Source of the DNA: Microgenomates group bacterium | GTDB taxonomy: Bacteria > Patescibacteriota > Microgenomatia > Daviesbacterales > UBA10151 | Length of the DNA stretch: 64,000 nt | NCBI GenBank assembly: GCA_041659805.1 | Contig: JBAZXP010000001.1 | Location: 880,224 to 944,223, forward strand | Direction: 5' to 3' | Shown: positions 4,783 to 51,313 of the stretch, piece after piece | How the letters are laid out: every line of letters begins with the position of its first letter | How positions within the stretch are numbered: the first letter of the stretch is position 1 | The notes under the pieces: model-generated | Databases searched by the model: none | What the model saw: only the letters and a program-made list of their open reading frames with translations | What the model was told of the DNA's origin: nothing | Translations under genes and position numbers: made by a program

Positions 4783-4820
4783 ACATTAAACGTACCAATT
4801 TTTAGCGCAATTAGCAATTA

Positions 4821-5300: not shown

Positions 5301-5303
5301 ATT

Positions 5304-5765: not shown

Positions 5766-5856
5766 ATTATTATATTAGCACATATATTTTGTTTATTTAC
5801 AGCATTATCTATTTACACAGTCAACATGATCGTGTATACATTAAGTCTATAAAAAT

Positions 5857-8010: not shown

Positions 8011-8022
8011 AATAGATAAAAG

Positions 8023-8406: not shown

Positions 8407-8454
8407 TTGTTTTATCTTTATCTTTCTAATTATTGACATACAGAATAAACTCTG

Positions 8455-9369: not shown

Positions 9370-9375
9370 GATAAT

Positions 9376-9909
9376 TTAATAGGTACAGGTTGCGATAACA
9401 GCAGTAGTCATGTCTGATCCTACTTCATACATAGTATCGCTTAAGCCTCCATCAGCCAACATCTTTGGTTTCTGTTGATCAGATTCCAAGACTGTTTCAA
9501 TTCTCCAAGTTTCTCCATTTCCACAATATGTGTAATGATATGCAGTGCTGTTAATTGGATCTATAGGCAGTGTTGGAACAGAAACACTTTTCTGGTTCGC
9601 GAAATTTATTTTAACCCAACCATTTCCGTCTATACCACGATATCCTGTAACGTTATTTGTACTTTTATCAGTACAATCACCTGCAACTGTGTTACAAGCA
9701 ATATATTGGCTGGATTGTGTTGATTCCTGTACAGCAACATTAATAGCTGTTTGCAGGTTAGCAAGATCAGTTAACCTGGCAGCATCACGACTTCTTTTCA
9801 TAAGTTCTAATGGATTAATAATCAACACCACAACAGCGGCTAAAATAGCAATAATTGCGATAACTACTAAAAGTTCTACTAACGTAAAACCACGGGCAGT
9901 TTTTTTCAA
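9376..9909 (-). CDS. type IV pilin
   Basis: MKKTARGFTLVELLVVIAIIAILAAVVV. Confidence 0.7.
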   Translation of the reverse strand: MKKTARGFTLVELLVVIAIIAILAAVVVLIINPLELMKRSRDAARLTDLANLQTAINVAVQESTQSSQYIACNTVAGDCTDKSTNNVTGYRGIDGNGWVKINFANQKSVSVPTLPIDPINSTAYHYTYCGNGETWRIETVLESDQQKPKMLADGGLSDTMYEVGSDMTTAVIATCTY

Positions 9910-9983
9910 ATTCTTTCACCTCCTTTCATCTCTTATTTAAGATTGTCATAGTTTTAAATTTTCGTCAAGAGTTCCAAAGCTCG

Positions 9984-11192
9984 TTACTTTATGTTTGTTG
10001 TCAACTGGTAAATAGGCAGGATTATTGAAATAACCAAGAAACCAACCCCAATACCTAAAACCACCAAAACAATCGGCTCAATCAATGTAGTTACGTTTTT
10101 TAATGAGTTATCTGATTCTGACTCAAAATAATCAGCCAATTTGAACATAATTTCATCTAGTTTTCCTGTCTCTTCGCCGGTTTTAATCATCTGCCCGATA
10201 ATCCGGGGGAATTCTTTCAGCCTCAAAATCTGACTTGAAAAGGATAATCCTCTTTCAACACCCTGATAAGCAAGCTCTAAACCATCCTGATAAACACGGT
10301 TCCCGGTTATTGCTGCCACTATTTTAATTGAATCCAAAATTGATAATCCGGAAGAAACCAATAAACCAAATGTTCTGGTAAAACTTGTTAAAATAATAAG
10401 GGAAGTGATCTTACCGATAACAGGAGCCCTCAGTAAAAAAGAATCGATCCTTAAACGTCCATCAGCTGTTTGGGAATATCTTCTGAAAGAGATAATCATA
10501 ATTACTAAAACTATCAGCAAGGCCCACCAATAACCCAGCATAAAATTAGAAAAACCAATCATGATTTGTGTAGGTAACGGAAGCTCAATATTAGATTCAC
10601 TATATAAGCCCAACAGCTTAGGCATAACAAAAAATACCATTATTAACATCACACCAATCATCATGGTCATAACCACAACCGGATAAATCATTGCTCCTCG
10701 GATTTTGCCCTGAAATTCTCTTTCTTTTTCCAGATTGGTTGCCAATTGCAAAAGTATAGTATCTAATTTTCCTGATGCCTGACCGGCTGCAACTAACTGG
10801 CTATAAATTGGAGGGAAAACTTCCGGAAATTTTTGTAAAGCTGAAGCAAAATCTAAACCGCCTTTAATATCTGCCAAGATATCTGCCAAAACCTTCTTAA
10901 ACTTCTTATTTTCCTGTTGGTCCTGCAAAATATCCAAGGCCTCTGATAAAACAAGTCCTGCCTGAATCATCGTAGCCAACTGACGGGTCATAATAACAAC
11001 CGCGCTAAACGGGATTTTATTAAAGGTCTTTTCAAAAAGATTCTCTTTATTTTTATTTTTTTCTTTGATGGAAATGATAATTAATCTTTTGCGTCGGAGT
11101 AGGGTAGCAGCTTGAAATTCATCGACAGTTTCAACATCACCCTTGTGATATTCTCCGTTCATGTCTTTGGCTGTGTATGAAAATACAGGCAT
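9984..11192 (-). CDS. pilC: type IV pilus platform protein PilC (GspF family)
   Basis: 402 aa with two T2SF-like repeats and 3 TM segments. It sits between pilT and the pilin genes. Confidence 0.85.
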   Translation of the reverse strand: MPVFSYTAKDMNGEYHKGDVETVDEFQAATLLRRKRLIIISIKEKNKNKENLFEKTFNKIPFSAVVIMTRQLATMIQAGLVLSEALDILQDQQENKKFKKVLADILADIKGGLDFASALQKFPEVFPPIYSQLVAAGQASGKLDTILLQLATNLEKEREFQGKIRGAMIYPVVVMTMMIGVMLIMVFFVMPKLLGLYSESNIELPLPTQIMIGFSNFMLGYWWALLIVLVIMIISFRRYSQTADGRLRIDSFLLRAPVIGKITSLIILTSFTRTFGLLVSSGLSILDSIKIVAAITGNRVYQDGLELAYQGVERGLSFSSQILRLKEFPRIIGQMIKTGEETGKLDEIMFKLADYFESESDNSLKNVTTLIEPIVLVVLGIGVGFLVISIILPIYQLTTNIK

Positions 11193-11196
11193 AATA

Positions 11197-12249
11197 TTAC
11201 CCTAAAATTTTGGCTAACAAGTCCGGCCTTAAACTGTAAGCCTGGGCCATCTCAAAAGTTATTTTGCCTTCTCTTACCAACTTAGCAAGAGACGCCTCCA
11301 TCGAGATCATTCCCAGCTCACCGGAAGTTTGAATCAAATTATCAATCATATGAGTTTTTGCGTCACGGATCAAAGATGAAAGCGCATTGTTTTTAAGCAA
11401 CAATTCAACTGCTAAAACTCGTCCCGGGATAATTGTCGGAATCAGTCTTTGAGAAATAATTGCCTCTAAAACCGCGGCCAATTGTAACCTGATTTGGGGC
11501 TGTTGGTTTTCAGGAAAAACATCGATCATACGGTCGATTGATTGAGCCGCAGAATTGGTATGTAATGTGGCAAATACCAAATGACCTGTTTCTGCAATAG
11601 TTATTGCCGCAGCAATTGTTTCGTAATCACGCATTTCTCCCACCAACACAACATCAGGATCTTCACGAAGAGCTGCTCTTAAGGCGTTCGGCCAGGTTTT
11701 GGTATCCAGTAAAAGCTCTCTTTGAGAAACTATTGATTTGCCCTTCGGATAAACGTACTCAATCGGATCTTCTATTGTTAATATATGAGACGTGTGTTCC
11801 TTGTTAATCTGGTTAATCATAGAAGCGAGTGTTGTTGATTTACCGTGGCCGGTCGGACCGGTAACTAAAATAAAACCCTGACGGGGAATAATTAACTTTT
11901 TAGTTGCATCAGGTAAGCCCAATGTGCTCATATCCGGAATTTGTAATGGAATTAGCCTTAAGGCAGCCGCCAAATGACCCTGCTCTTTAAAAAGATTCAC
12001 CCTGAACCTGGCTTTATCTTCAAAAGACATGCCAAAATCAAGTTCCAGATTTTCATCAAAAGCCTTCTTTTGATTTACCGAAAGCAGGGGAGTTACCAAA
12101 CCGATAACATCAGAATTAGAAAGAGGAGTAGTGCCTGCAATTGGCAATAGCTCTGAATGAATGCGGAGGGATGGTGGATAACCCACCACAAGATGTAAAT
12201 CTGAAGCTTTTCTGGCAACTGCAATATCTAATAGTTGATGTATATTCAT
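11197..12249 (-). CDS. pilT: twitching-motility retraction ATPase PilT
   Basis: Walker A GPTGHGKSTT, about 350 aa, PilT-type Asp and His boxes. Confidence 0.85.
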   Translation of the reverse strand: MNIHQLLDIAVARKASDLHLVVGYPPSLRIHSELLPIAGTTPLSNSDVIGLVTPLLSVNQKKAFDENLELDFGMSFEDKARFRVNLFKEQGHLAAALRLIPLQIPDMSTLGLPDATKKLIIPRQGFILVTGPTGHGKSTTLASMINQINKEHTSHILTIEDPIEYVYPKGKSIVSQRELLLDTKTWPNALRAALREDPDVVLVGEMRDYETIAAAITIAETGHLVFATLHTNSAAQSIDRMIDVFPENQQPQIRLQLAAVLEAIISQRLIPTIIPGRVLAVELLLKNNALSSLIRDAKTHMIDNLIQTSGELGMISMEASLAKLVREGKITFEMAQAYSLRPDLLAKILG

Positions 12250-12250
12250 T

Positions 12251-13960
12251 TTATTCTTCAGCCACCCTCAGAACTTCTTCCAGGCTGGTAACTCCTTCTA
12301 ATGCCTTCATATACCCGTCTTGTTTTAAAGTTATCATACCTTCTGCTATTGATTCAGTTTCGATTGCCTGAGCAGAAGCGCGTTCCAAAATCATTTGCAT
12401 TATTTTAGAAGAAACCGTAAGAACTTCGAAGATTCCGATTCTTCCCTGATAACCCGTTCCGCCGCACTCTGCACATCCGCCACCCTTAAAAAGTAAAATC
12501 GGTTTTTCTGCAGGGTAAAGTTTACCTAAAACCTTTCTAAAACTAGCCTGAATTTCAGGCAAAGGAGTATAACTGCTTTTGCAGTGAGGACAAATTTTTC
12601 TTAAGATCCTTTGACCGACACAAGCATTAATAGACGAGGCTAAAAGAAACGGTTCCATACCCATATCTAAAAGTCGAGGCAGAGCACCAGAGGCTGTGTT
12701 TGTATGCAAAGTCGAGAAAACCTGATGACCGGTTAAGGCTGCCTGAATTGCGAGCTCGGCTGTTTCAGCATCCCGAACCTCTCCTACCAACATGATATTA
12801 GGATCCTGTCGCAAAAACGACCTCAAGGCGGATGCAAAAGTTAAACCAATTGTCGGGTTAACCTGAACTTGATTGGCTCCCGGAATCTGGTACTCAACCG
12901 GGTCCTCAACAGTCACCATATTTACTTTTGTGGTTGAAAGTCTGGTCAAAACAGAATAAAGGGTCGTGGTTTTACCGCTACCCGTAGGACCGCAGATTAA
13001 AATGATACCATGAGGTCTTAAAATTTGAACCTCAAAGTTCTTTAAAGCAATACCGCGCAACCCCAATTCCTGTAAAGTCGGAGGAATGGTTGTTTTAGGC
13101 AACAACCTCATCACGACTTTTTCGCCATAAATTGTCGGAACAGTTGAAACACGCAGATCATATATGTCTTTACCGGCACTGTAACTAAAACGTCCGTCTT
13201 GCGGCAATCTTTTCTCTTCAATCTTTAAGTTAGACAATATCTTGATTCTGGAAACAAGGGCATCGTGCACTGTTCTGGGTAAAATAATTTTTTCATGCAA
13301 AATTCCGTCAATACGATAGCGCACTCTAGTCCGGTCATCTAATGGCTCAATATGAATATCTGAAGCCCTGCTTGACACTGCAAATTGAAGAAGTTGGGTA
13401 ATAATGTTGGCCACAGGTGCTTCATGAATAACCTCAGCCTTCTCTTCTTGAGCTTCAGCTGCTTTCTCTGACTGTAGCTCTGACACCTCTTTCAATGCAG
13501 ATGTCACCTCTGAGGTTAGATTTTGAGAATACTGATCATTTATAGCTTTCGTGATATCTTCAGTAACAGCCAAATATGGTTTTACATATAGGGCAGACTT
13601 TTTCTCAATGAATTGAATAACCTGTAAGTCCAAAGGATCTGCCATAGCCACAAATAATTTATCGCCTTTTTTGTCAAAAGGAATAATGCGGTATCGCCTG
13701 GCAACCACCTCCGGAACAAAATTTAAAACTTCAGAGGAAACAGCTTTACCTTCGAGGTTAATAAAAGGAACTCCCATCAAAGTAGCTCTGGCAGCTGCCA
13801 TTTTAGCCGGAGCGACCAATTGATGTTGAGCAAGTATCTGTTCTGTTGTTTGACCGCTGTTAATTGCTTCTAATTTAATTGCAGAAAGTTGCTGTTGAGT
13901 AATAATACCCTGCTTAAATAAAACATCTTCTATACCAAATTGTTCTTGGGCAGTTGCCAT
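12251..13960 (-). CDS. pilB: type IV pilus assembly ATPase PilB (GspE family)
   Basis: GPTGSGKTTTLY Walker A, N-terminal GspE_N-like region, and a C-terminal tetracysteine CPHC...CAEC. Confidence 0.85.
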   Translation of the reverse strand: MATAQEQFGIEDVLFKQGIITQQQLSAIKLEAINSGQTTEQILAQHQLVAPAKMAAARATLMGVPFINLEGKAVSSEVLNFVPEVVARRYRIIPFDKKGDKLFVAMADPLDLQVIQFIEKKSALYVKPYLAVTEDITKAINDQYSQNLTSEVTSALKEVSELQSEKAAEAQEEKAEVIHEAPVANIITQLLQFAVSSRASDIHIEPLDDRTRVRYRIDGILHEKIILPRTVHDALVSRIKILSNLKIEEKRLPQDGRFSYSAGKDIYDLRVSTVPTIYGEKVVMRLLPKTTIPPTLQELGLRGIALKNFEVQILRPHGIILICGPTGSGKTTTLYSVLTRLSTTKVNMVTVEDPVEYQIPGANQVQVNPTIGLTFASALRSFLRQDPNIMLVGEVRDAETAELAIQAALTGHQVFSTLHTNTASGALPRLLDMGMEPFLLASSINACVGQRILRKICPHCKSSYTPLPEIQASFRKVLGKLYPAEKPILLFKGGGCAECGGTGYQGRIGIFEVLTVSSKIMQMILERASAQAIETESIAEGMITLKQDGYMKALEGVTSLEEVLRVAEE

Positions 13961-26555: not shown

Positions 26556-26759
26556 ATGGAAAAAAAATTAACTGCCATAGCTGTTTTTTATTTTGTGATT
26601 GGATTAGTCTTTGCCATTGCCTTCGCTATTTTTTACCACTGGCCAACACTTTCATACTTTAGCCCAAATTTTTATTCAGTGGTCTTAACCTGGCCATTTC
26701 AAATTCCGGGATTTATAACTGATTTTCAATACTACGGCCTAGCCGGAAAATTATATTAA
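26556..26759 (+). CDS. small hydrophobic protein (hypothetical)
   Basis: 67 aa with one TM helix. It overlaps the convergent recombinase gene by 4 nt. Confidence 0.3.
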   Translation: MEKKLTAIAVFYFVIGLVFAIAFAIFYHWPTLSYFSPNFYSVVLTWPFQIPGFITDFQYYGLAGKLY

Positions 26760-27682
26760 GATATATCCTTATTCCCACTATGAAAAGTCTTATGCACATC
26801 TTTTAAGTGTTTATTGGTTACATGAGTATAGATTTGAGTTGTGGAGATATTGGAATGACCAAGCATTTCCTGCACAGACCTGATATCAGCCCCATTAATA
26901 AGCAAATCTGTGGCAAAAGAATGCCTTAAGGTATGTGGTGTAGCTTTTACTAAAATCCCGGCAGCTTTAACATATTTTTCTACAATTCTTTCAATTGATC
27001 GGGGAGTGAGCCTCATTCCTTCACCTCCAGGACTAACATCAACTGTGCCCTGAAACCTGATAAACAAAGGTGAAAAACTATCTTTTCTGTTTTTTAAATA
27101 CTGATCAAGCCAGTAAATTGCAGACTCACTCAAAAATACCACCCTTTCCTTGGATCCTTTTCCGACAACAGAAAACTCTGCCCGGTCTAAATTTATTGAA
27201 TCGCGGTTTAAAGAAGCTAATTCTGCCACACGAAGCCCTGTTGAAAAAAGAGTTTCCAGAAGAGATCTATCACGCAAACCTCCGATTGTATTTGTTTGGG
27301 GAGATTCAAGCAGTTTTTTTAAGGATTCGTCATCGAGAACTTTAATAGGGGAGGCATCAGTCTCACCAAGCTCAATTTGTTCTGCTGAGAGCGATTCTAT
27401 GCCTTGTTTTGACAAATACCTTAAAAAAGCACGCAGGGCAATCATAAAAAAATTTTGAGTAACTCGCTTTAGTGGCTCTTTTGTTTTGGGATCTGTCCAG
27501 CGGTTTAAAAAAAGGCGGTATTTGCGAACTAAGCTTAAGTTAATATCTGATGGTTTAATATCACCGGCAAAATCCAGAAACCGTTTTAAATAATGATCAT
27601 AATTTTGGATTGTTTTTTGAGACGTATTACGCTCAATTTCCAGATATTCCAAAAAGTCTGTTATAGTTGCAGAAAGAGTCAT
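26756..27682 (-). CDS. tyrosine recombinase XerC/XerD family
   Basis: C-terminal HTLRHSFATDLLINGADIRSVQEMLGHSNISTTQIYTHV (R..H..R..Y catalytic residues). It abuts the cohesin gene. Confidence 0.8.
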   Translation of the reverse strand: MTLSATITDFLEYLEIERNTSQKTIQNYDHYLKRFLDFAGDIKPSDINLSLVRKYRLFLNRWTDPKTKEPLKRVTQNFFMIALRAFLRYLSKQGIESLSAEQIELGETDASPIKVLDDESLKKLLESPQTNTIGGLRDRSLLETLFSTGLRVAELASLNRDSINLDRAEFSVVGKGSKERVVFLSESAIYWLDQYLKNRKDSFSPLFIRFQGTVDVSPGGEGMRLTPRSIERIVEKYVKAAGILVKATPHTLRHSFATDLLINGADIRSVQEMLGHSNISTTQIYTHVTNKHLKDVHKTFHSGNKDIS

Positions 27683-28381
27683 TTAGCGTCTTGCCAAAGA
27701 AATAAAACCCAGGAAAGTTAAAACCCCACCGACTGCAATCAACATTAGAGTAGTATTTAAATCCGCGGTACCGGGTAGCGGCGCAGCTGGGGCTCTTGTA
27801 ATCGGAGCTTCTGTTATAGTTGCAGAAGGTGTTGATATTGGCGCTCCTGTACCGCTACAAGCTCCGGTACCGATAACAAAATTACCATTAACAACCTGAT
27901 TTAAAGTTTCTGCCATAGTTCCTACTTCTACAACATTCGAATCAGTGGTTTTGCTTTTATCATTTGCATCGAAATCGAATTTAATTTGAGTTGCCCCTAC
28001 AGGTGCGGTTTCCAGGACTGTAAAATCAACTGTTGCTAATGTTCCTGAGCCTTTATAGGAAGAAGTCGCAGACGCTAAACCTGAAACTAAAACAGTTCCG
28101 GTAGCTGTATCAATGTTGTTACCGGGGTAATCAGGATAAATACTGCCATTATTTATTTTATTTGCAATAAAGCGGGTTGTATCGTAATTTAAAATCACAT
28201 CTGTGCCTGCAGTATCATAACCACCGGTATCCAGTAAAATCTGCAAAGAAAACTTACAATTTTTGTTAAATGTCCCAGTAGCAGGGGAGAGTGAAAGAGT
28301 AGACCCAGCAGCAAACACCACAGCAGGACTCGTAAAAAGAACGCTTATTATGCTTAAGATTGTTAAAATTACTTTTTTCAT
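27683..28381 (-). CDS. cohesin-like domain protein with a C-terminal LPXTG-type (LPGTA) sorting signal
   Basis: Signal peptide. A cohesin-like beta-sandwich segment (DVILNYDTTRF...GTLATVDFTVLETAPVGATQIKFDF). C-terminus LPGTAD + hydrophobic stretch + ARR. Confidence 0.6.
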   Translation of the reverse strand: MKKVILTILSIISVLFTSPAVVFAAGSTLSLSPATGTFNKNCKFSLQILLDTGGYDTAGTDVILNYDTTRFIANKINNGSIYPDYPGNNIDTATGTVLVSGLASATSSYKGSGTLATVDFTVLETAPVGATQIKFDFDANDKSKTTDSNVVEVGTMAETLNQVVNGNFVIGTGACSGTGAPISTPSATITEAPITRAPAAPLPGTADLNTTLMLIAVGGVLTFLGFISLARR

Positions 28382-29007
28382 TGAGTTATTGTTATATCCA
28401 GGTTTTTAACTTCCTCCAAGACATCATCAGAAGTTTTACTGTCAATTAGGTTTGTATCGTTTGTTCTTTTGGGCGCAAACTCAAGAAAAATCTTAGCTTT
28501 CCCTGCAGCCTTAGCCTGAAAAATAATTGTACCAAATAACCCCTTGGGTACAACTCCTCCAACTTTATTGGTAATTCCTGAAACTGTAATAACTCCGTTT
28601 TTTTCATCAACAGAATTAATAGGGTATTCATCATAAAGATTTCCCAAACTAACAGGAGTTTTTGATGCGTTTGAGGCTAAACTCAAAAGGTTGGCATCAT
28701 AATGAATAATCAAATCTGCGCCGGCCGTCATTTTGTTTGAATCTATATTTATTCCGATCGGCACAACCTCACCAATTTTAAATTGAGTTTTAGGTGAGGT
28801 TAAAGAAATAGTATTTGAGTTCCCAGTTTGTGCCACAGAGGTAGATGTTGAGGTTGCGGTTGGTTGGTTTTGGTTCTGTTTGTTAATTGCCTGATAAGCC
28901 CAAACCCCTTCAGCACCTATTATAATCACAACCAAAATTATTAAATAAATTGGCTTAATATTGCTTAGTATTGATGATATTTTTGTTTGTATATTGGACA
29001 GGTCCAT
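28378..29007 (-). CDS. cohesin-like domain protein with an N-terminal membrane anchor
   Basis: N-terminal TM (IYLIILVVIIIGAEGVWAY), a Q/N/T/S linker, then ADLIIHYDANLL...GTIIFQAKAAGKAKIFLEF, which is cohesin-like. Confidence 0.55.
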   Translation of the reverse strand: MDLSNIQTKISSILSNIKPIYLIILVVIIIGAEGVWAYQAINKQNQNQPTATSTSTSVAQTGNSNTISLTSPKTQFKIGEVVPIGINIDSNKMTAGADLIIHYDANLLSLASNASKTPVSLGNLYDEYPINSVDEKNGVITVSGITNKVGGVVPKGLFGTIIFQAKAAGKAKIFLEFAPKRTNDTNLIDSKTSDDVLEEVKNLDITITQ

Positions 29008-29070: not shown

Positions 29071-29340
29071 TTATTGTGTTGCTGCTGAAGTCGATTCTGG
29101 TGCAGGAGGACCAAGAGGAGAACGCAGTTCAACGGTTAAAGCAGTTGAGCTGGTTGTTCTTTTATCAGGACTAACATTATCTCCTGTAAATGTAATTGGA
29201 TCTGCTGCTGCTTTTGACCTTAGGAACTGTTGCTCTGAAGCTAATTTTACTCCGACAGGAATTACCAGCACCATAATTCCGATAATCAACAGGGTTATAA
29301 TATTTTTCTTATTTAATGTGCGTGTATTATTCTCGTCCAT
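29071..29340 (-). CDS. truncated paralog of the 31879..32583 product (shares the N-terminal TM + QQFLRSKAA..ITF signal)
   Basis: 89 aa that align with the first ~90 aa of the 234-aa protein. It may be a gene fragment. Confidence 0.4.
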   Translation of the reverse strand: MDENNTRTLNKKNIITLLIIGIMVLVIPVGVKLASEQQFLRSKAAADPITFTGDNVSPDKRTTSSTALTVELRSPLGPPAPESTSAATQ

Positions 29341-29342
29341 AT

Positions 29343-31877
29343 TTAATCTCCACTCTTATTATAATTATTTTGTAAGCAAGAGTAATCAACAGAGTTAACC
29401 CTACCATCATTATTTAAATCACCAGGTCTGGTAACATCAGAATTAATTGCCCATTCTCTGGACATCTCACCTTTATCAAAAGCATTAACTTTATTATCAG
29501 GGGAGGAAACTGGATAGATATCTCCTACGTATAGAACAATTTCACCCAGATTAGTCGTTCCTTCTTCTGCCACAAACTCAACTCTTCTACTGACAGTTTT
29601 AGGAGCTTTAAGACTCAACACATAAGTTTTTCCGATTTCAATACCAGGTGTAAAATCAACAGGTTTACCTTCTTTATCAATTTTAATCTTTTTATTAATC
29701 AGGGATTTAGCACCTTCAACCTTTTCTTTGATATCAACCGCTACATTATCCATTGATAAATCACCGCCAGAAGCCAAACAAGTAGTTTTCTCTGTAAAAT
29801 CGACTGTTGTCAGGTCCAGTGAACAATAACCATTTACCACAGTACCATCATCCAAAGTGAGCACAATTTGATGACGACCTCCGGTTAGTTTCTCATTCAC
29901 ACTGGATCTAATCTCATACCTGGTATCATTGTTTGCTCGGACAGCACCAGACTGAGTTGCAGACCCAGAAGAAGTTGTTTCCCTCCCCAAAGCTATCCAG
30001 GAACTAATATTTGCCCGCTTACCTTCAACGCTAATATTCCCAGAACCTTGTTCATCGTGTGGTCCAATATTTATACCTCTGACGTTCACCAATGTTCCGG
30101 TTCCTAAAGGATTAAATGTGCAGGTTGCTGAAGTAACTCTTGGTTGACCACCAATATATTTAATACTTTTTGTAACAACAGGACTTTTATTGCCTTTATT
30201 ATCTCTAAACTGACAAAACAGGTTCAAATTTCCACCAGGGACAACGTTATAAGTAAACTCATAATTAAATAATATAGGGGCGCCAGATCCATCTTGATTC
30301 CTGTACGTCTTCCATTGTGGGGCGCTTGAACCAGCATCATCCTTATCAAAACTTTGTTCTGAACACCTGTAATCCGTGGTATAGGTAGGAATTGTAGGAG
30401 TTGGCGGAGGAGGAGTAGGAGTAGGAGTAACATAAGTAATTTGACGTTGGCTAACTTCACTGGTGGTAGTCTGATCAGATTTTTTAAACTGAACAAATAC
30501 AGTATAAACTTTTCCTCCTACAGGATTGGATAGGGTATGACCAAAGAGTGTTAAAGTATCACTGCCGCCTGCAGGAGAATATGATCTCCAGGGATATGAA
30601 GCGTTTTCAGGATCTCCACCATTAAAAGGCACATCAACAGAATAGCGGTATTGGTAAGTTCTGTCGGTGGAAGATGGGGGATTTGTGACTGTAGGAGCAT
30701 CATTCCTTACAATGATTGTTTTTACACTAGAGCCCCCGCAAGAAGTAACATTACCCGTATTCCCTGGGATACCAGTACCACAATCTATACAATTTATGCC
30801 CGCAGGACAACTCGTAGCCGAAAATGACCATTTACAAAAAGCGTTGCCTGAACATGATATTCTGGCTGAACCATTTACCTCTGAGCTATGTGAAGTTATA
30901 AAAGGACCTACATAATATGTACCTGCAATAGTTGGGGTAAACCCACCTGAAAATGAACCGGAATTAGGGCCAGACCTTCTGTCTGCAGAGTTTGTTAAGT
31001 CTGCAGGCACTGCGCTTACATTACAATAGATATTATTACTACCGCCACCCTCCAAATTACTTGTAGGACAACCTGTCGTATCTCTATTTTGGCGACTCCA
31101 AAAAAGTTTGGTGCTTGCTAACCCTCCGGGAACATTACCCCCATTAACATCAACCCTAAAATCAAGCCTTGTACCAGGACGGACATTATTCGGATCAACA
31201 CCAGAGGTAGTAAGGTTCACTACTGCTGAAATTGGACCTGAACCATCAGTGCTACCTGGAGCAGCATTAGCATCTCTAGAAAACCAAACGTGATTCCATC
31301 TACAATTACCCCAATCGTCTGTAGATGATGTAGGTTTCCTAATAGCTTTAATTTCTATAGACTGGTCATTAGAAGGTGTTGCAAAAGTTCCTTGCTGAAT
31401 AGGAATTCCACAATCGTTACCTAAATTATCAGTCAGTTTATGAAACCATTTGGTTAACTTAAAATTAGGATCATCAACATGTATTGACACTCTTGTTGGT
31501 ACACCATCCGCTGTACCCAAAGGAATACTTATACGTTCAAAAGTATAAAAAGGCTCATCATGGACAAAAGTACTACCTTTTCCAGAAGGGTCAGGGTTAC
31601 AGCCACTTGAAAATGAATCACCATCAGTTCCTTGACTCCAAGTCACCTTATAAGTTGGACCGCCTTGACAAGAAAGGCCTCCGCAAGAACCGCCAATTAT
31701 TTTTCTTTGGTTAGGACAACTACCATAAAGTGATGAATCCTCATCTGTCACTTCACCAAGTAAAACAGCTCCCTCTCGTGAACCGTTCCAAACAGCTGAT
31801 GCTTTTTGGGCAGAAAAAACAAAACAGACTGTTAATATTAAGCTAAATAAATATGTAAATACTTTAATTTTTTTCAT
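29343..31877 (-). CDS. large secreted cysteine-rich protein with a C-terminal dockerin-like Ca-binding repeat
   Basis: Sec signal peptide (…SAQKASA|V), a PTPTPPPPTPT linker, and C-terminal GDLNNDGRVNSVDYSCLQNNY, which matches the dockerin repeat consensus. Confidence 0.6.
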   Translation of the reverse strand: MKKIKVFTYLFSLILTVCFVFSAQKASAVWNGSREGAVLLGEVTDEDSSLYGSCPNQRKIIGGSCGGLSCQGGPTYKVTWSQGTDGDSFSSGCNPDPSGKGSTFVHDEPFYTFERISIPLGTADGVPTRVSIHVDDPNFKLTKWFHKLTDNLGNDCGIPIQQGTFATPSNDQSIEIKAIRKPTSSTDDWGNCRWNHVWFSRDANAAPGSTDGSGPISAVVNLTTSGVDPNNVRPGTRLDFRVDVNGGNVPGGLASTKLFWSRQNRDTTGCPTSNLEGGGSNNIYCNVSAVPADLTNSADRRSGPNSGSFSGGFTPTIAGTYYVGPFITSHSSEVNGSARISCSGNAFCKWSFSATSCPAGINCIDCGTGIPGNTGNVTSCGGSSVKTIIVRNDAPTVTNPPSSTDRTYQYRYSVDVPFNGGDPENASYPWRSYSPAGGSDTLTLFGHTLSNPVGGKVYTVFVQFKKSDQTTTSEVSQRQITYVTPTPTPPPPTPTIPTYTTDYRCSEQSFDKDDAGSSAPQWKTYRNQDGSGAPILFNYEFTYNVVPGGNLNLFCQFRDNKGNKSPVVTKSIKYIGGQPRVTSATCTFNPLGTGTLVNVRGINIGPHDEQGSGNISVEGKRANISSWIALGRETTSSGSATQSGAVRANNDTRYEIRSSVNEKLTGGRHQIVLTLDDGTVVNGYCSLDLTTVDFTEKTTCLASGGDLSMDNVAVDIKEKVEGAKSLINKKIKIDKEGKPVDFTPGIEIGKTYVLSLKAPKTVSRRVEFVAEEGTTNLGEIVLYVGDIYPVSSPDNKVNAFDKGEMSREWAINSDVTRPGDLNNDGRVNSVDYSCLQNNYNKSGD

Positions 31878-31878
31878 C

Positions 31879-32583
31879 TTAGTGCTGTGGCGGTACCGTC
31901 AATAAATCGTTCGGCCCACAACGTGGGTTTTGCGGAATAGTAGCAACCGGATTACCAGTACAATAAACCATACCATTAAGTGTCTGTGCGTTAGCTACAA
32001 TGTAATAACGTTGACTATCATTTGGGTATACCCATGTACCAGAAGCTGTACATGTACTGGCTCCGCCACAATCATTATTAACCGCTACCTGAGTCCAGGA
32101 ACTTGCCAGTGTTAAATTAGATGCTTGATTAGCTACATATACCCATGCTTTTCTGAGATTTACTCCTGTTGCAGTAGTGGTATATGTATTATTTGGTCCG
32201 GAAGATACAGAAGCAGAAAGTCCTGGAAACGGAGAAGGAGAAATTGGAGCTGAAGTTGGTACTTGTGTCACACTAGCTGTGGGTACTGTGGTAGTAGTTG
32301 GATTTGCTGTCGCAGTAGGGGTTACAGAACCGGGTTCTCCATATGGGCCAAAAGGAGAATGAAAAGCTATATCTACATTAGGCGAAGTAGTTCTACAACC
32401 GCTAGTATCACAAGTAACGCCTGTCCCACCAAAAGTAATTGCCTCACCTGCAGCCCTGGAGCGAAGTCTTTGTTGCTGTTGAACTAAATAAACGCTTAGA
32501 GGAACTGCTACAACTACTAAGATTAAAACAACAGCAGCTATGATATTTCTTCGAGTTAAAAAGGATTTTATAGAGTCATTCAT
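31879..32583 (-). CDS. surface protein with a conserved N-terminal TM + QQQQRLRSRAAGEAITF motif, a T/P-rich linker and a Cys-containing C-terminal domain
   Basis: First gene of the cohesin/dockerin operon. It is a paralog of the 89-aa product. Confidence 0.55.
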   Translation of the reverse strand: MNDSIKSFLTRRNIIAAVVLILVVVAVPLSVYLVQQQQRLRSRAAGEAITFGGTGVTCDTSGCRTTSPNVDIAFHSPFGPYGEPGSVTPTATANPTTTTVPTASVTQVPTSAPISPSPFPGLSASVSSGPNNTYTTTATGVNLRKAWVYVANQASNLTLASSWTQVAVNNDCGGASTCTASGTWVYPNDSQRYYIVANAQTLNGMVYCTGNPVATIPQNPRCGPNDLLTVPPQH

Positions 32584-32635
32584 GTAAAGTAGGGCATTAG
32601 ATCCAGATTAGAGCAAAAGGACAACGATTGTCAAG

Positions 32636-32772
32636 CACAGTTCAGCAAATCAGCAGTTCAGCAAATCGGCAAATTCAGCGAGTCAGCAAGACAGAATGTC
32701 AAATGAGTGGTTTATATTGTACGACAAGACATCAGTAGATCAGCATGTCGGCGAATCGGCAAATTCAGCAGA
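32636..32772. repeat. iteron-like degenerate direct repeats (cagcaaatc[a/g]gcaaattcagcgagtcagcaag family) in a divergent promoter region
   Basis: At least five tandem or dispersed copies are visible. Inverted copies lie at 33163-33203 and 33961-34030, and a related copy inside gyrA at 24568-24616. Confidence 0.6.
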
Positions 32773-32801
32773 GTAATAGATCTGATAATATATAAATTAG
32801 C

Positions 32802-33152
32802 ATGATAAAAGATGTGACAGATTTGGAGGTTTACAAAGAATCAATGTATTTGTTGCATGAAGTAAATACTTTAACAAGTTTAATCTCACAAACAGAAAAG
32901 GATTTGATCTCGCAGATTAAAAGAGCCTCGAGATCTATTCCTGCAAACTTAGCAGAAGGGTTTGCAAAAAAATCTTCTACAAAGGAATTTAAGCGCTACC
33001 TGATGATCTCCTTAGGCTCAAGCGATGAACTTATAACTCATTTCAGGGTCTTAATAATAATTAATCCAGGTTTACAAAGTCAGTCCGAAGATATTTTAAA
33101 AAAATACCAAATTTTATCTAAAAGACTTAACGTCCTATACCACAAATGGTAG
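32802..33152 (+). CDS. four-helix-bundle protein of the 23S rRNA intervening-sequence / DGR Avd (accessory variability determinant) family
   Basis: SQIKRASRSIPANLAEGFAKKSSTKEFKRYLMISLGSSDEL matches the family signature (SQ..RAa.Si..NIAEG..r.s..ef..fl.iA.GS..E). Confidence 0.75.
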   Translation: MIKDVTDLEVYKESMYLLHEVNTLTSLISQTEKDLISQIKRASRSIPANLAEGFAKKSSTKEFKRYLMISLGSSDELITHFRVLIIINPGLQSQSEDILKKYQILSKRLNVLYHKW

Positions 33153-34031
33153 TTTTTATTAATACTGACTCGCTGAAACTCCGATCTCCCGATACTCTGA
33201 AGCTCCGTAGCCACGAGACCCTAGAAGGCCCCTAAAACGGCCGGAAAGCAGGGAAGTGGTATGGTAAGCTATCTAAAGATTAGGTTGTCCTAAAGCCCCA
33301 AACTCATTAGAGGCAAAACATAAGTAAGACGAAAAATTAGTGGACAAATTATCAGGAAAAAGTGGCAAAAATAGCACGAATAAAACCGGCTTAAAAATCT
33401 ATAAAAAAATCATTCATGCGCAAATTTATGGATTTATACCTCTTCCCTTAAGCGTGTGTCCGTCGTCGCATAAGATACATTGTACGACTAGATAATTGGG
33501 AAGTATAATCAAAATGCATATTCCCGGGAGTGGAGTTAAACATACACTAAGAGAGGGGCGTGCTTCTGTTCCTCTTAACCAGTCCTTGCCATAGATATGA
33601 ACAGAAGCTATTTACTCTCTCCTCCATTCATGTAGATCCTCTTTTTTCACGCGTGAAAACTCAATTAGCACTAACTATATCATTTTGACAGTATTAGCCT
33701 CAAAACAGAGTACTCTACCCTCAAAAATATTAAAGAAAATTGCTATTTTTTGAGGCTAAATCGAAGCTAAAAATTAAACCCAGAAGAGTACTATACCCTA
33801 TAGTTTTAGCTTCAAAGTTATCCACAGTTTATTCTCTATCTGTATCAAACTATATCAACTATACTACCCTATAGTTTTTATGTTCGGGTTTTGTTCAATA
33901 CTATCAAACTATATCATTTAAACCTAAAATCACCATTTCTCTCTCCTCCACTTTCTTTCTGATTTTGCCGATTCTCTGATACTTCGACTCTTGCTGATTC
34001 TCTGACCCCGCCGATACCCCGATATTCTGAA
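33153..34031. other. ~880-bp ORF-free region rich in repeats and stem-loops; possible ncRNA or decayed element
   Basis: No ORF of 60 aa or more in any frame. Stem-loops at 33719-33755 and 33763-33813. Direct repeats aactatatca (x3), taccctatagttttt (x2) and agagtact[c/a]taccct (x2). Terminal inverted copies of the 32636-32772 repeat family. Confidence 0.4.
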
Positions 34032-34871
34032 CTATCCTGTCCAGGAAGTTGTGATTAATGCAATTAAAAATATTCCCAATCCAAATCCAAGAAATAACCA
34101 AATATCTACTTCGGTAATCCTCTCTTTCAAAGTATGAGTCGCTATCCCCAATGTTACATAAAGTCCTGTTGAAACAATTAAGGATGACATTGGCTTGGCA
34201 ATCGGCCAAAACGACAGAGCAATTGCCATCTCCCCTATTATTAAGGCTAAAACAGCTGAGTAAACTAAAATAAAAGCACTTATACCCTCCATATCCAGAG
34301 ACCAAATCACCTGTAAAATTAATGGAAATCCAATTAAAAATACCGCTAACCCATTCCAAATAAAAAATAAATTTAAAGAAAATACTACGTTGAACAACAT
34401 AAAAGCAGTTATAAGAGTTAGCACGAAAACCGTTGTTGAAGCCACTCTATATAAAGGAATAGTTCTGATGGAAGCCACATTAAACACATTTTGTGAAAGT
34501 AGCAAAGTATAAAAAACTAGGCCAAAGGCAAAAGCCACTGGTAATCTGGTAAGCCATCTGACCGGCAAAAGAAAATAATAGCTGGCAACAGCCAAAGTAA
34601 ATGCCATCGGGAGTATCATTAATATAATTGCTTTCAAGCTATTTAAACCTTCCCATAAAGCCCAAATTGATAGGACAAAGGAAAGTAATGCTAACCCTAC
34701 AATAAAGCGGTTTGTTAAAAAAACCGGCACTAATTGGGTTGATAAAAGCCCCAAGGAAAGTATGATAGAAACTAAAATAATTTTATGCCTTTTTTCAAAA
34801 GATAATTTCTCACGGGTTAGGGTAAGGAATATTTTTATTAGAAAATCACTGAATCTAAAAATTAAATTCAT
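34032..34871 (-). CDS. polytopic membrane protein (hypothetical)
   Basis: About 8 TM helices. Co-oriented and overlapping with ruvC (4 nt). Confidence 0.5.
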   Translation of the reverse strand: MNLIFRFSDFLIKIFLTLTREKLSFEKRHKIILVSIILSLGLLSTQLVPVFLTNRFIVGLALLSFVLSIWALWEGLNSLKAIILMILPMAFTLAVASYYFLLPVRWLTRLPVAFAFGLVFYTLLLSQNVFNVASIRTIPLYRVASTTVFVLTLITAFMLFNVVFSLNLFFIWNGLAVFLIGFPLILQVIWSLDMEGISAFILVYSAVLALIIGEMAIALSFWPIAKPMSSLIVSTGLYVTLGIATHTLKERITEVDIWLFLGFGLGIFLIALITTSWTG

Positions 34872-47539: not shown

Positions 47540-47902
47540 TTACCTATTTTTCTTTTTAGAGCAAGACAGGCAAAGAGTGGCAGTAGGCATAGCTTCAAGC
47601 CTTTCTATCTCTATCTGTTTGCCACAATTTTCACATTTCCCATAAGTTCCTTTTTTAAGTTTAACTAAGGATTCTGCAATTCTCTTTGAGAGGTAGGTCA
47701 AATCACCTTTCACCATTGAAAGCCTGCTATGAACATCTGCCATCCAGGAATCTGTACCTGATTCAGAAGCTTCAGGAGCCAAATCTTTATTGGTAACAGG
47801 ATCGTCTTTTTCGATTCCTTCAAGTTGTTTTTCAACAGACTTTTTCTGCCTTTGCAGCACTTTTTTAATCTTATTAATAGTTTCTCGGGGTAGATTTAAC
47901 AT
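47540..47902 (-). CDS. DksA/TraR-family C4-type zinc-finger protein
   Basis: Coiled-coil N-terminus and C-terminal CENCGKQIEIERLEAMPTATLCLSC. Confidence 0.7.
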   Translation of the reverse strand: MLNLPRETINKIKKVLQRQKKSVEKQLEGIEKDDPVTNKDLAPEASESGTDSWMADVHSRLSMVKGDLTYLSKRIAESLVKLKKGTYGKCENCGKQIEIERLEAMPTATLCLSCSKKKNR

Positions 47903-48854
47903 TTAGCTTTTTCTTAAGTTTCCTTGGAAGTACTCTTAGGTTAGTTTTTGTTGTTCCGAACCTGATCCTCCAACTTATTTTAGCATTATAACAATGTTTA
48001 ATTAATCTTTGTAGTACCAAGTTTCGCTTTTTACCCGAGGTCATTGCACGGGCAATTAGCGATAAATCCTGTATAAAAACCCTTTTAGAACGATTATAAA
48101 ATACGACCACACCGATAATAAATATTACTAGCGGCGCAAGAGCATCCTGGAAATAACCGCCCCGCAATAAATACTCTGCAAGAAACCTTTCCAGACCCAA
48201 AAGCATCAGAGTAATTGATACGATTTTCCCGTTGAAATGAAAACGGGTAGCATTTTTCCATAGCCAAAAGAAAAATAATAAGTATATAAAACTTTCAAAA
48301 ATATTTACAGGAAGTCTTTTGCCGATTAAACCTACCACAGGTACTGCAACCGGCAAAGAAGAAACTACTCCATAACCACACCCTCCAAGAAAACAACCGA
48401 AGCTGCCAAAAACCAAGCCCATCATAAGCCCCACAGCAGCCATGTCAGCAATCTGCCAAAAATTTAATTTAGCCCTCATGGTTAATAACTTAAGTGTAAG
48501 CACACCACCAATCAGCGCACCCCATAAAGCAAGCCCCGGATAAAGATTAATCAAAAAAATATGGGAAAGATTAGTAAAATATCGGAGATTCAAGAGTATA
48601 AAATATGCTCTTGCAAAAATTAAACCTCCGAAAAAAGTAAGCAAACCTAAATCTAAAATTTTACTTTCATCCAGATCATATGCTTTAGCCAGTCTCCATG
48701 CAACAAAAGTAGCAGCTAAAAAACCCAGGGCTAAGAATAATCCGAAAGAAGAAACCGGAATGGCACCTATAGAAAATAAAATCGGTAACATAATTGGTAT
48801 GATACCAAATTTTGACTTATACTTCCTCCCCTTGTTATACTGATTATTAGACAA
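47874..48854 (-). CDS. lgt: prolipoprotein diacylglyceryl transferase-like membrane protein
   Basis: Multi-TM protein with Lgt-like segments (FGGLIFARAYFIL; G-rich GCFLGGCGYG). The assignment is tentative. Confidence 0.45.
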   Translation of the reverse strand: MSNNQYNKGRKYKSKFGIIPIMLPILFSIGAIPVSSFGLFLALGFLAATFVAWRLAKAYDLDESKILDLGLLTFFGGLIFARAYFILLNLRYFTNLSHIFLINLYPGLALWGALIGGVLTLKLLTMRAKLNFWQIADMAAVGLMMGLVFGSFGCFLGGCGYGVVSSLPVAVPVVGLIGKRLPVNIFESFIYLLFFFWLWKNATRFHFNGKIVSITLMLLGLERFLAEYLLRGGYFQDALAPLVIFIIGVVVFYNRSKRVFIQDLSLIARAMTSGKKRNLVLQRLIKHCYNAKISWRIRFGTTKTNLRVLPRKLKKKLNVKSTPRNY

Positions 48855-49303: not shown

Positions 49304-49856
49304 CTCTTTCAATATATTGACCTGAACGGGTATCTACTTTTACTTTATCTCCGACTTTCATAAACATCGGAACTTTAACAGTCAAACCATTATCCAAAGT
49401 TGCGTCTTTGTAAACATTGGAAACTGTATTTCCTTTTTCACCAGGACCTGTTTCTGAAATTTCATAGATTAGAGTATTCGGAAGCTCTAAACCAAGTGCA
49501 GTATCATCAGCCACAATCAATATAACATCCAGCCCGTCCTTTAGGAATTTACCAGCATCCCCCACTGTATCTTTGGAAATTGGGAATTGCTCAAATGAAA
49601 CAGGGTCCATGAAATTGTATGTTTCACCATCTGCATACAAAAACTGGGTTTTTTTCTTCTCTACTCCTGCTTCTTCAACCCTGGCTCCTGTGATAAAAGA
49701 TTTTTCTGATGTGGCTCCTGTTTTTAAATTTCTGATCTTAACTTTAATATTCCCTGATCCCCTACCCATTTTTATGTGCTCATAAGTAACAACCTGCCAG
49801 AGCTGGTTGTCTTCTTTAAAAACCACACCATTTCTTAAATCGTTTACGTTTATCAT
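49296..49856 (-). CDS. efp: translation elongation factor P
   Basis: MINVNDLRNGVVFKEDNQLWQVVTYEHIKMGRGSGNIKVKIRNLKTGA. The ATG overlaps the pepA TGA stop (ATGA). The track ORF extends to 49937. Confidence 0.85.
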   Translation of the reverse strand: MINVNDLRNGVVFKEDNQLWQVVTYEHIKMGRGSGNIKVKIRNLKTGATSEKSFITGARVEEAGVEKKKTQFLYADGETYNFMDPVSFEQFPISKDTVGDAGKFLKDGLDVILIVADDTALGLELPNTLIYEISETGPGEKGNTVSNVYKDATLDNGLTVKVPMFMKVGDKVKVDTRSGQYIERVK

Positions 49857-51313
49857 TGTGAGATTAATTCTACCAAAGTTTTTATGCCTATTCCAGTAGC
49901 TCCCGGTGAACTGTAAGGACTGGCATTTAAGTCCCAAGCTGTACCTGCAATATCTAAATGAATCCAGGGGGTATTTTCTTCTATTACAGTTTCAATAAAT
50001 TTAGCTGCAGTAATCGATCCTGCTGAAGAAGGAATAGGACCTCCATGAGCTATATTAGAAATATCGGCAATATCAGATTTAATCATGTCAGTATACTCTT
50101 CTCCCAAAGGCATCTTCCAAAATTTTTCGCCTACAGTTGCTCCCAAATTTATAAATTTTTCTGAAAACATATCATTATTACTAAAAAGACCGGTAATTTT
50201 ATGGCCCAAAGACACAACCATTGCTCCTGTTAAAGTAGCCAAATCGATTACTTTGGTTGCTTTTAAATCTTTTTGAGCTAAGGTAACCACATCCATCAAA
50301 ACCAGCCTTCCTTCGGCGTCAGTATTTAAAATTTCTACGGTTTTACCATTGTAACTTTTTATAATATCCCCCGGTTTTAAGGCTTTACCTGAAGGTAAAT
50401 TTTCAGTTAATGCTAAAACAGCCGAAACATTAACACGGGGTTTAAGTTCACCAATAATTTGCATCACTCCTAAAACATTGGCAGCCCCGCACATATCATA
50501 TTTCATCTCATGCATACCTGAACTTGGTTTTATGGAGATTCCGCCTGAATCAAAAGTTAAGCCTTTTCCGACTAATCCGTATTTGTCCTTACTTCTGGGA
50601 TTTCCTAAATATTCCATCGTCACAATAAAGGACGGTTCGTCTGATCCTTTTGCAACTCCTGCAAATCCACCCATACCCTTTTTTGAAGCCATTTTCTCAT
50701 CAATTACAGCAATTTTCAGTTTATAATCTTTGGCAATTTTTTTAGCTGCTTCCACAAAATATGAAGGCGTTACTTCATTTGCAGGCAAATCCCCCAGCAT
50801 TCTGGCCAAATTTATGCCACCTGCAACAACGGAAGCTTTTTTAATTGCAATTTTATCTTCTCCCCTAGCTTTTTCCAGATAAATTTGTAAACCGCCAAGT
50901 TTTGTAGGTTCTTTTTCTGTTTTGAATCTGGTTGAAGGATCATGAAAAGCAATTTCTGCACCCAGGACAAGCGCATAAATCACAGCATCTGAAGATAATT
51001 GTTCTGACTCAGCTGGTGGAATTAATGTAGCGTCCTTGAATTTATTAATTAAATATTTAGAAACCGTGCCTCCGAAATTCTGACAAGTTTCAAAATTAAA
51101 TTTGTCCTTCTCCCCCACTCCAACCAAAAGAAAACTTTGCTCAGCATTAAATAAGAGTTGTAGCTCATTGGGTTGTCCAAATTTAGGATTATCCTTCAAA
51201 AAATCCTGAATCAGCTGATTCTTGAATTGTGGCACTTCATTTAAAAAAACCGGGATAGCAATAATCTTAACTTCTTTCAGAGACTCTTGGTCTGTAGATA
51301 GCTGAATTCTCAT
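49853..51313 (-). CDS. pepA: leucyl aminopeptidase (M17 family)
   Basis: NTDAEGRLVLMD signature and Zn ligands. Confidence 0.85.
   Translation of the reverse strand: MRIQLSTDQESLKEVKIIAIPVFLNEVPQFKNQLIQDFLKDNPKFGQPNELQLLFNAEQSFLLVGVGEKDKFNFETCQNFGGTVSKYLINKFKDATLIPPAESEQLSSDAVIYALVLGAEIAFHDPSTRFKTEKEPTKLGGLQIYLEKARGEDKIAIKKASVVAGGINLARMLGDLPANEVTPSYFVEAAKKIAKDYKLKIAVIDEKMASKKGMGGFAGVAKGSDEPSFIVTMEYLGNPRSKDKYGLVGKGLTFDSGGISIKPSSGMHEMKYDMCGAANVLGVMQIIGELKPRVNVSAVLALTENLPSGKALKPGDIIKSYNGKTVEILNTDAEGRLVLMDVVTLAQKDLKATKVIDLATLTGAMVVSLGHKITGLFSNNDMFSEKFINLGATVGEKFWKMPLGEEYTDMIKSDIADISNIAHGGPIPSSAGSITAAKFIETVIEENTPWIHLDIAGTAWDLNASPYSSPGATGIGIKTLVELISQ

Follow-up and report, generated by a model that had tools for sequence, protein, structure and literature searches.

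The described systems closest to the one reported here are secretion signals with conserved features of their own. In the YSIRK-G/S type (TIGR01168), a conserved motif at the boundary of the n- and h-regions of a cleaved, Sec-type signal marks a subset of surface proteins, with sortase/LPXTG partners nearby. The KxYKxGKxW signals with their AST segment, which belong to the accessory Sec system (SecA2/SecY2), are long, have a conserved n-region and are followed by a conserved segment that opens the mature protein, and the SipW-dependent signals of TasA and TapA (TIGR04088) are confined to a small operon for extracellular structures, with a strand-forming segment after the cleavage site. A typical Sec signal has an h-region of about 7-15 residues and a c-region of about 3-7 (von Heijne), and in the substrates of signal peptidase I, positions -3 and -1 are held by small or neutral residues while +1 is not Pro. 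For bacteria of the Candidate Phyla Radiation (CPR, or Patescibacteria), a life attached to other cells is assumed, and the way in which they build their surface is largely obscure. Here, we describe an N-terminal unit common to two proteins encoded in a 64,000-nucleotide stretch of a Microgenomates group genome (contig JBAZXP010000001.1; hereafter, the window), in which the motif QQxLRS[KR]AA..ITF stands just behind a transmembrane (TM) helix. Our preferred reading, which we hold at about even confidence, is that this motif closes, on the C-terminal side, an extended signal peptide of the Sec type that is specific to one lineage and one locus. In the literature, no description was found of the motif, of cohesin systems in these bacteria or of DUF5656, a membrane protein encoded beside the operon. 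The two carriers and their modules are located as follows (HMM, hidden Markov model; MAG, metagenome-assembled genome):

31879..32583, minus strand: 234-aa carrier (NCBI WCV81_03825) with signal, hairpin, Pro/Thr linker and predicted C-terminal beta-sandwich; from the list of open reading frames (ORFs), with an exact Microgenomates MAG protein match
32452..32583, minus strand: signal module of the 234-aa protein, aa 1-44, with leader, RRN, 18-residue uncharged helix containing Pro, and QQQQRLRSRA ending at the invariant Ala44; from motif coordinates, column conservation and geometry
32338..32448, minus strand: hairpin module of the 234-aa protein, aa 46-82, GEAITFGGTGVTCDTSGCRTTSPNVDIAFHSPFGPYG; hairpin-only HMM 53 bits, predicted short strands at 50-73
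29071..29340, minus strand: 89-aa stand-alone carrier (NCBI WCV81_03815), signal and hairpin only
29209..29340, minus strand: signal module of the 89-aa protein, aa 1-44, ending ...EQQFLRSKA; from motif scan, conservation and geometry
29101..29205, minus strand: hairpin module of the 89-aa protein, aa 46-80, ADPITFTGDNVSPDKRTTSSTALTVELRSPLGPPA; hairpin-only HMM 51 bits

A first-pass annotation of this DNA had pointed to the motif in both ORFs, and this was confirmed. In a six-frame pattern scan of all 64 kb, LRS[KR]AA, Q.LRS and [KR]AA..ITF were confined to the 234-aa and 89-aa ORFs, and an HMM of the module found no third carrier in the window. The similarity extends beyond the juxtamembrane motif: the two proteins are 37% identical over 81 residues (BLASTP, E = 2e-15), and the common unit comprises their ~80 N-terminal residues in the order leader, KKN/RRN, TM helix, QQxLRS[KR]AA and ITFxG ... 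RSPxGP. At the DNA level, identity between the two 5' coding regions is no higher than 55% and the longest identical run is 7 nt, which rules out an artefact of recent duplication or gene conversion; the similarity is maintained at the protein level, with selection acting on the protein and not on the DNA. No long direct or inverted repeats joining the two genes were found. Neither protein matched Pfam (E <= 0.01) and, apart from one chance-level hit, neither matched NCBIfam (E <= 1). The closest relative is a Candidatus Daviesbacteria MAG, and orthologues of the 89-aa protein with 65-78% identity occupy the same operon position in other genomes. In the AlphaFold2 (AF2) model of the 234-aa protein, residues 11-41 are helical, a small four-stranded sheet occupies 50-73 (predicted local distance difference test, pLDDT, about 70), the linker at 76-119 is disordered and a beta-sandwich spans 121-208; for this model, Foldseek returned generic, weak Ig-like matches only, all with E > 1e-3. 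For the 89-aa protein, the model (mean pLDDT 67) has a helix at 11-39 with the remainder at low confidence, and it contains no confident hairpin fold.

A profile built from 11 relatives was searched exhaustively against 1.84e9 cluster representatives and matched 659 proteins at E <= 1e-3, of which 246 reached E <= 1e-10. The unit is thus not restricted to two paralogs, the case in which the first-pass annotation would have taken it for a simple duplication, and the proposed positionally fixed, conserved N-terminal signal was borne out across 659 clusters of otherwise unrelated proteins. Among the 150 matches listed of the 659, the carriers range from 68 to 1321 aa and the unit lies at or within ~40 residues of the N-terminus. 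Beyond the unit, 65 of 156 carriers have 15 residues or fewer (stand-alone proteins of 80-100 aa) and 49 of 156 have more than 200. The conservation per column, again out of 156, is as follows: in the signal, K11 126, K12 127, N13 133, P28 154, G30 103, L33 139, Q37 125, Q38 129, S42 138 and A44 156, the last being invariant; in the hairpin, I49 133, F51 143, G53 117, S76 132, P77 143 and G79 128. The invariant residues hold across representatives of clusters at 50% identity. Signal and hairpin together constitute an uncharacterised protein-family signature that is covered by no Pfam or NCBIfam model. In all cases having a source name, the carriers come from Daviesbacteria or Microgenomates. 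One of the loci described below, L006 (CAZDEH010000008.1), is labelled as an uncultured Gammaproteobacteria bacterium; as its gene order and proteins are of the Microgenomates/Daviesbacteria type, it is probably a mislabelled bin.

The motif had been read as one continuous element, QQxLRS[KR]AA..ITF, and in this respect the annotation needs revision, given that it spans two separable modules. The first is the signal of ~45 residues, which consists of KKN, a helix of 18 uncharged residues in which one Pro is near-invariant, and exactly 13 residues (QQQxLKSRA) that close with the invariant Ala at position 44. The second is an optional hairpin of ~35 residues (PITFxG…V.V.L.SPLGPP), followed in most large members by a Pro/Thr-rich linker. 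Because separate HMMs split the two and the homology has a boundary between them, QQxLRS[KR]AA closes the first module and ITF opens the second. Many carriers have no hairpin, and in these signal-only relatives the similarity ends exactly at ...QQQxLKSRA and gives way to unrelated, often Cys-rich sequence. As examples (slash, end of similarity), the boundaries read …QQQQLKSQA/AGEFICDG in L009 (8845), …EQQILKSRA/DDSSACVY in L016 (9983), …QQQILKSRA/SDPSCFGP in L017 (9057) and …QQQNLRSKA/AGGVEVG in L002 (8005); further cases are found in L014 (9992), L015 (1169) and L023 (1009). The signal HMM matched 53 unique proteins, always at the N-terminus and never internally. The hairpin HMM matched 24 unique proteins, in all of which the hairpin stands directly behind the signal; among these 24 matches, it was neither internal nor placed behind a classic signal peptide.

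The geometry of the signal hardly varies. The uncharged core measures 18 residues (interquartile range, IQR, 18-18) and the invariant Ala follows 13 residues further (IQR 13-13), with K/R at columns 11 and 12 in 147/156 and a median uncharged run of 18 residues next to them. Taking the Ala as position -1 (151/151), position -3 is S134/I6/T6/P3/A1/G1 (n = 151), position -2 is mostly R/K/Q, and +1 is A/T/S/V/G and others but never Pro. The family therefore has the basic n-region of a Sec signal and follows the (-3,-1) rule together with the absence of Pro at +1, whereas the rule of a short c-region and h-region does not hold, with 13 residues after an 18-residue core. In the AF2 models, the helix runs without a break from residue 11 to 39-41, and S-R-A lies in a stretch that is modelled as non-helical with low confidence. 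The first-pass annotation had stated that the motif is not a Sec cleavage site; this part of it fared less well, since Ser at -3 in 134/151, the complete absence of Pro at +1 and the end of homology at the Ala all fit such a site and only the spacing is atypical. Judged by these residues, the signal probably ends in a conventional signal-peptidase site after the invariant Ala, S-[RK]-A↓A (arrow, cut). Classic signals in the window include those of an 844-aa dockerin protein (…CFVFSAQKASA↓VW) and of a cohesin protein (…SPAVVFA↓AG), both from the operon listed below. Over the C-terminal 350 aa, dockerin included, this 844-aa protein is 66% identical to a 663-aa protein of L002 which bears the special signal, and thus one signal type can take the place of the other where the cargo is homologous.

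Compared with the described signals, the unit shares with Sec/signal peptidase I signals the basic n-region, the hydrophobic core, Ser at -3, Ala at -1, the lack of Pro at +1 and the exchangeability just mentioned. It differs in being about 44-60 residues long instead of about 22-32, in its 18-residue core and fixed c-region of 13 residues instead of 4-7, in its conservation throughout (KKN, P.G) and in its limitation to one operon. Like YSIRK-G/S, it is a conserved motif in a presumed cleaved Sec-type signal that marks a subset of surface proteins with sortase/LPXTG-type partners nearby, but the motif lies mainly in the c-region, the hosts are CPR Microgenomates and no NCBIfam match exists even at E <= 1. 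With KxYKxGKxW/AST, it shares the length, the conserved n-region and, in many members, a conserved segment (here, the hairpin) that would open the mature protein; however, there is no homology, the hairpin is optional and none of the loci contains SecA2/SecY2 or glycosyltransferase genes. SipW-dependent signals resemble it in their confinement to a small operon and in the strand-forming segment behind the cleavage site, yet no SipW-like or other S26 peptidase is found in the loci and no HMM match was obtained. Membership in the YSIRK, KxYKxGKxW and SipW-cognate families was rejected, as neither carrier had such an NCBIfam match at E <= 1. By analogy, the signal thus seems to act in the manner of these specialised signals of the Sec type, each of which singles out a subset of surface proteins, while being a member of none of them. 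A lipoprotein signal was rejected as well, because lipobox Cys is absent from the six commonest residues of every signal column and from the window carriers, and both window carriers lack an LPXTG-type C-terminus. A Tat (twin-arginine translocation) signal, which the first-pass annotation had already dismissed, finds no support in the family: the consensus is KK and not RR, with K126/R21 and K127/R20 in the two columns. Residues 10-13 of the 234-aa protein (32545-32556) read T-R-R-N, followed by I-I, and resemble a twin-arginine motif; given the family consensus at this place, TRRNII is most likely coincidental. What is new here is a specialised signal peptide with a small N-terminal module, otherwise of a recognised signal type.

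All carriers in loci with usable context occupy one slot (~17 distinct loci including the window, namely L001, L002/L006, L005, L007, L009, L010, L011, L012, L014, L016, L017, L019/L020, L022, L025, L026/L027 and L028). The slot consists of YebC-RuvC-DUF5656, then 2-5 co-oriented carrier and dockerin genes, then two cohesin genes, and then XerC. A search with a narrow alignment gave two genome loci, and the same slot was also found for metagenome loci retrieved with the bare pattern QQQI[LFI]KSR, in which there were 11 cohesin and 4 dockerin matches. In the window, the gene order on the minus strand is 234-aa carrier, 844-aa protein, 89-aa carrier, cohesin A, cohesin B and XerC-like recombinase, with yebC, ruvC and DUF5656 upstream. 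Besides the two carriers, the operon and its borders comprise:

34032..34871, minus strand: DUF5656 polytopic membrane protein, upstream boundary of the slot; Pfam DUF5656
32584..32801, minus strand: upstream region of the operon, with a -35/-10-like pair of TTGACA (32634-32629), a 16-nt spacer and TCTAAT (32612-32607)
29343..31877, minus strand: 844-aa operon partner with classic Sec signal (…SAQKASA↓VW) and C-terminal type I dockerin; Pfam Dockerin_1 above cut-off
28378..29007, minus strand: cohesin protein A, 209 aa, with N-terminal TM anchor; Pfam Cohesin above cut-off, kept at this position in all loci
27683..28381, minus strand: cohesin protein B, 232 aa, with classic signal peptide, Pfam Cohesin and C-terminal LPGTA + hydrophobic stretch + RR (LPGTADLNTTLMLIAVGGVLTFLGFISLARR); conserved in the loci
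26756..27682, minus strand: XerC-like tyrosine recombinase, downstream boundary of the slot; Pfam Phage_integrase 1.8e-42, present in all loci with downstream context

The promoter-like pair was picked by eye and is missing from the scan table. Just upstream of it, two blocks of GCTGA repeats with a period of 8 nt (TTGCTGAA/CTGCTGAT/TTGCCGAT…) are located at 32642-32687 and 32724-32769, and a partly complementary copy of the periodic repeat is found at 33959-33979; these repeats may form an array of operators that controls the surface operon.

Close relatives differ in the genes that the slot contains. At its upstream edge, mobile genes are found, including an extra integrase (L016, L025, L026), GIY-YIG, a toxin-antitoxin pair and Y1 transposase-like genes. 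Between DUF5656 and the first carrier, each genome has a small or mobile gene of its own: in the window, a 23S-rRNA-IVP-family protein (32802-33152, plus strand), and elsewhere GIY-YIG, PhdYeFM/ParE or an additional tyrosine recombinase accompanied by a ~180-aa protein (L001 2984-3352, L005 6138-6413, L010 5520-6043, L016 6731-8274, L025 528-2103, L026 3034-4567). The upstream slot edge looks like an insertion hotspot. DUF5656 adjoins the carriers as 15 distinct orthologues and is immediately upstream in every locus with upstream context. The first 4 nt of its gene coincide with the end of ruvC, and it looks co-transcribed with yebC-ruvC. The protein has ~8 TM segments and conserved polar residues (E74, R105, R109, Q127, N128, R136, R142, E214, R251), and we rejected the idea of a hidden protease, as neither a Cys/His nor a Ser/Lys catalytic signature is conserved in it; by its adjacency only, it is a candidate partner. 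The first-pass annotation had suggested a test of whether carriers cluster with a particular protease. Such clustering was not observed: across the loci examined, there is no conserved neighbouring peptidase family, and the peptidases of the window (PilD 8455-9369, M17 49853-51313 and S41 63091-63984, minus strand) are 20-30 kb off, non-syntenic and absent from the other loci. The S41 enzyme, at the window edge, is Ctp-type and PDZ-containing; together with Lgt (prolipoprotein diacylglyceryl transferase, 47874-48854, minus strand) it is a general envelope-processing enzyme without a link to the operon. Cohesin B bears a sortase-type sorting signal (LPGTA); no sortase gene is among the window families listed.

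The window contains two cohesin matches and one Dockerin_1 match above the Pfam cut-offs, and Dockerin_1 is the commonest Pfam domain of the large carriers (16/81). Other cargo domains are TIG, SdrD_B, F5/8 type C, PKD, Big_7, GH5 and a pectate-lyase-like beta-helix, so that the cargo, as far as domain matches tell, is adhesin-like or carbohydrate-related. By the same kind of evidence, the operon reads as a miniature cohesin-dockerin system with a sortase-type anchor. Like cellulosome-type systems with sortase-anchored scaffolds, it combines a pair of cohesin proteins, of which one has an LPXTG-type signal, with dockerin-bearing cargo in the same operon, but it differs in being tiny, with single-cohesin proteins in a ~1.1-Mb CPR genome, and in the N-terminal signal and hairpin that are dedicated to its cargo. 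To our knowledge, a dedicated N-terminal cargo signal with a hairpin is no feature of described cellulosomes. We also considered hairpin and dockerin as mutually exclusive anchors, given counts of 1/19 versus 8/16 in the fetched loci (Fisher p = 0.005); the exclusivity was lost in the wider set, where 16/81 large hairpin proteins have a Pfam dockerin, and it is at most a tendency.

The size and architecture of the family, its fixed geometry and residue pattern, the homology boundary, the synteny and the lack of peptidases nearby are observations; export, cleavage, the enzyme responsible and any role of the hairpin are inferred from them, as follows. A short conserved leader, on the cytoplasmic side in this reading, ends in (K/R)(K/R)N and is followed by the 18-residue uncharged helix with its near-invariant Pro and Gly; the fixed polar stretch of 13 residues, L-x-Q-Q-Q-x-L-K-S-R-A, which would lie on the outer face, ends at the invariant Ala. 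The precursor would insert N-in/C-out via Sec/YidC and would be cut after this Ala (S-[RK]-A↓A/T/S), with signal peptidase I as the simplest candidate, and the mature part would be released. In the window proteins, the predicted cleaved N-termini at A45 are AADPITFTGDNVSPDK / AGEAITFGGTGVTCDTSGCR (AADPITF… or AGEAITF…), while uncleaved forms would give the tryptic peptides AAADPITF… or AAGEAITF… (after R43/K43). Both mature parts would open with the hairpin, or mini-sheet, and a Pro/Thr linker; the mature 89-aa protein would be the hairpin module alone, to which the 234-aa protein would add an Ig-like beta-sandwich. The signal is found on the cargo of a single surface-protein operon of Daviesbacteria-like Microgenomates, conserved yet hypervariable, in which the two cohesin genes are always last.

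Cleavage is favoured over a retained anchor because of the homology boundary at the Ala, the residue pattern, the interchange of signals and the dockerin, which as a separate attachment device would make a retained N-terminal anchor redundant for its carriers. Several points weigh against this interpretation. The core, at 18 residues, has the length of a TM anchor and a site 13 residues past it is atypical for signal peptidase I substrates, the classic signals of the same loci having 4-7 residues between core and site; the conservation of KKN and of the intramembrane Pro and Gly exceeds the needs of generic Sec export and therefore points to a specific partner; the Pro/Thr linkers that follow the hairpin would be equally suitable for a retained membrane anchor whose tether spans the wall; and one locus per genome rests on ~17 loci with flanks of at most 10 kb on each side. 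Most of these points would be natural for an uncleaved type II signal-anchor, which we regard as a possible though less probable explanation. The helix would then stay in the membrane, QQQxLKSRA would act as a rigid juxtamembrane stalk with the Ala and Ser in structural roles (helix cap, partner contact), and hairpin and linker would tether the cargo through the cell wall. The predicted continuation of the helix to residue 39-41 would agree with this, the conserved Pro28/Gly30 and cytoplasmic KKN would suggest lasting contacts with a helix partner, and cohesin A of the same operon is itself anchored by an N-terminal TM segment. On the other hand, a stalk does not account for homology that ends exactly at the Ala in the signal-only proteins, nor for -3/-1/+1 residues in the pattern of a cleavage site; many carriers with a C-terminal dockerin would be tethered at both ends, and homologous cargo works with a classic, cleavable signal.

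The first-pass annotation had gone further and proposed recognition by a dedicated peptidase or sorting machinery. What stands of this is a dedicated, conserved N-terminal signal; set against it are the probably conventional cleavage site, the lack of a link to protease genes and the use in one operon instead of genome-wide. A pathway of this kind, in which leader/KKN, P.G and QQQxLKSRA would be read by a specific machine and not by generic Sec and signal peptidase I, is in our opinion unlikely. Its reader could be the DUF5656 protein next door, an accessory translocase or a specialised peptidase, and the arrangement would be analogous to the YSIRK, KxYKxGKxW/accessory Sec and SipW-dependent signals. 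Conservation above that of generic signal peptides, extending to the n-region and the membrane core, the fixed spacing, the constant presence of DUF5656 next to the carriers and the fact that the hairpin never follows a classic signal all speak for such machinery, as does the seeming restriction of the signal to one operon while neighbouring secreted proteins bear classic signals. No peptidase or translocase family is conserved nearby, however, with PilD, S41 and M17 of the window being distant; DUF5656, which overlaps ruvC, seems to share the yebC-ruvC transcript and lacks a catalytic signature, and a classic signal can stand in for the special one. It is accordingly with low expectation that we mention the most far-reaching form of this idea, namely that the module is the address tag of an undescribed CPR surface-display pathway with dedicated machinery (DUF5656 being the sole candidate in sight), in which the hairpin would be a new attachment or assembly element beside the dockerin (cohesin ligand, donor strand) and the whole a minimal hypervariable complex for attachment to hosts or particles. 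Much less probable still is that the conservation is a by-product of the shuffling of DNA cassettes, or of gene conversion, at a recombinase-flanked locus. Slot gene content does differ between close relatives, additional integrase or other mobile genes occur and an Xer-like recombinase always flanks the slot, but the low DNA identity of the two 5' regions, without runs above 7 nt or long repeats linking the genes, the common orientation of all carriers and the persistence of invariant residues across 50%-identity representatives largely refute this explanation. Least probable of all, in our view, is a divergent pilin-like (class III) signal that is cut by the prepilin peptidase of the window, with the helices as the core of a filament. 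The short leader, the conserved hydrophobic helix with Gly/Pro and the variable C-termini, which include very small subunits, would be compatible with it, and at a distance of 20 kb there is a type IV pilus cluster that includes PilD. Yet the expected Gly at -1 before the helix is replaced by Asn (N13, 133/156), there is no conserved Glu at +5, carriers are never beside pilus genes in other loci, and no N_methyl match was obtained for the carriers, whereas six N_methyl pilins of the window, which served as a positive control for class III signals, are recognised; the annotation had been right to set the prepilin signal aside. The pilus cluster itself (1100-13960) looks complete, with PilB (12251-13960), a second T2SSE ATPase, PilC (T2SSF), PilD and the six N_methyl proteins.

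Several things are thereby defined: a protein-family signature found in 659 clusters, in which one position is invariant and several others are nearly so; a genomic slot of Daviesbacteria-like Microgenomates, conserved yet hypervariable, in which the signal is linked with a sortase-type anchor and a cohesin-dockerin system in miniature; and a concrete, directly testable putative processing site, S-[RK]-A↓A. Should the unit be merely a long Sec signal, it would still be useful for annotation, since Pfam and NCBIfam models miss the family. If the signal is selective for the operon, it would correspond, in the CPR, to the specialised YSIRK and accessory-Sec signals of Gram-positive bacteria and would offer a handle for predicting surface-exposed, fast-varying proteins in these bacteria.

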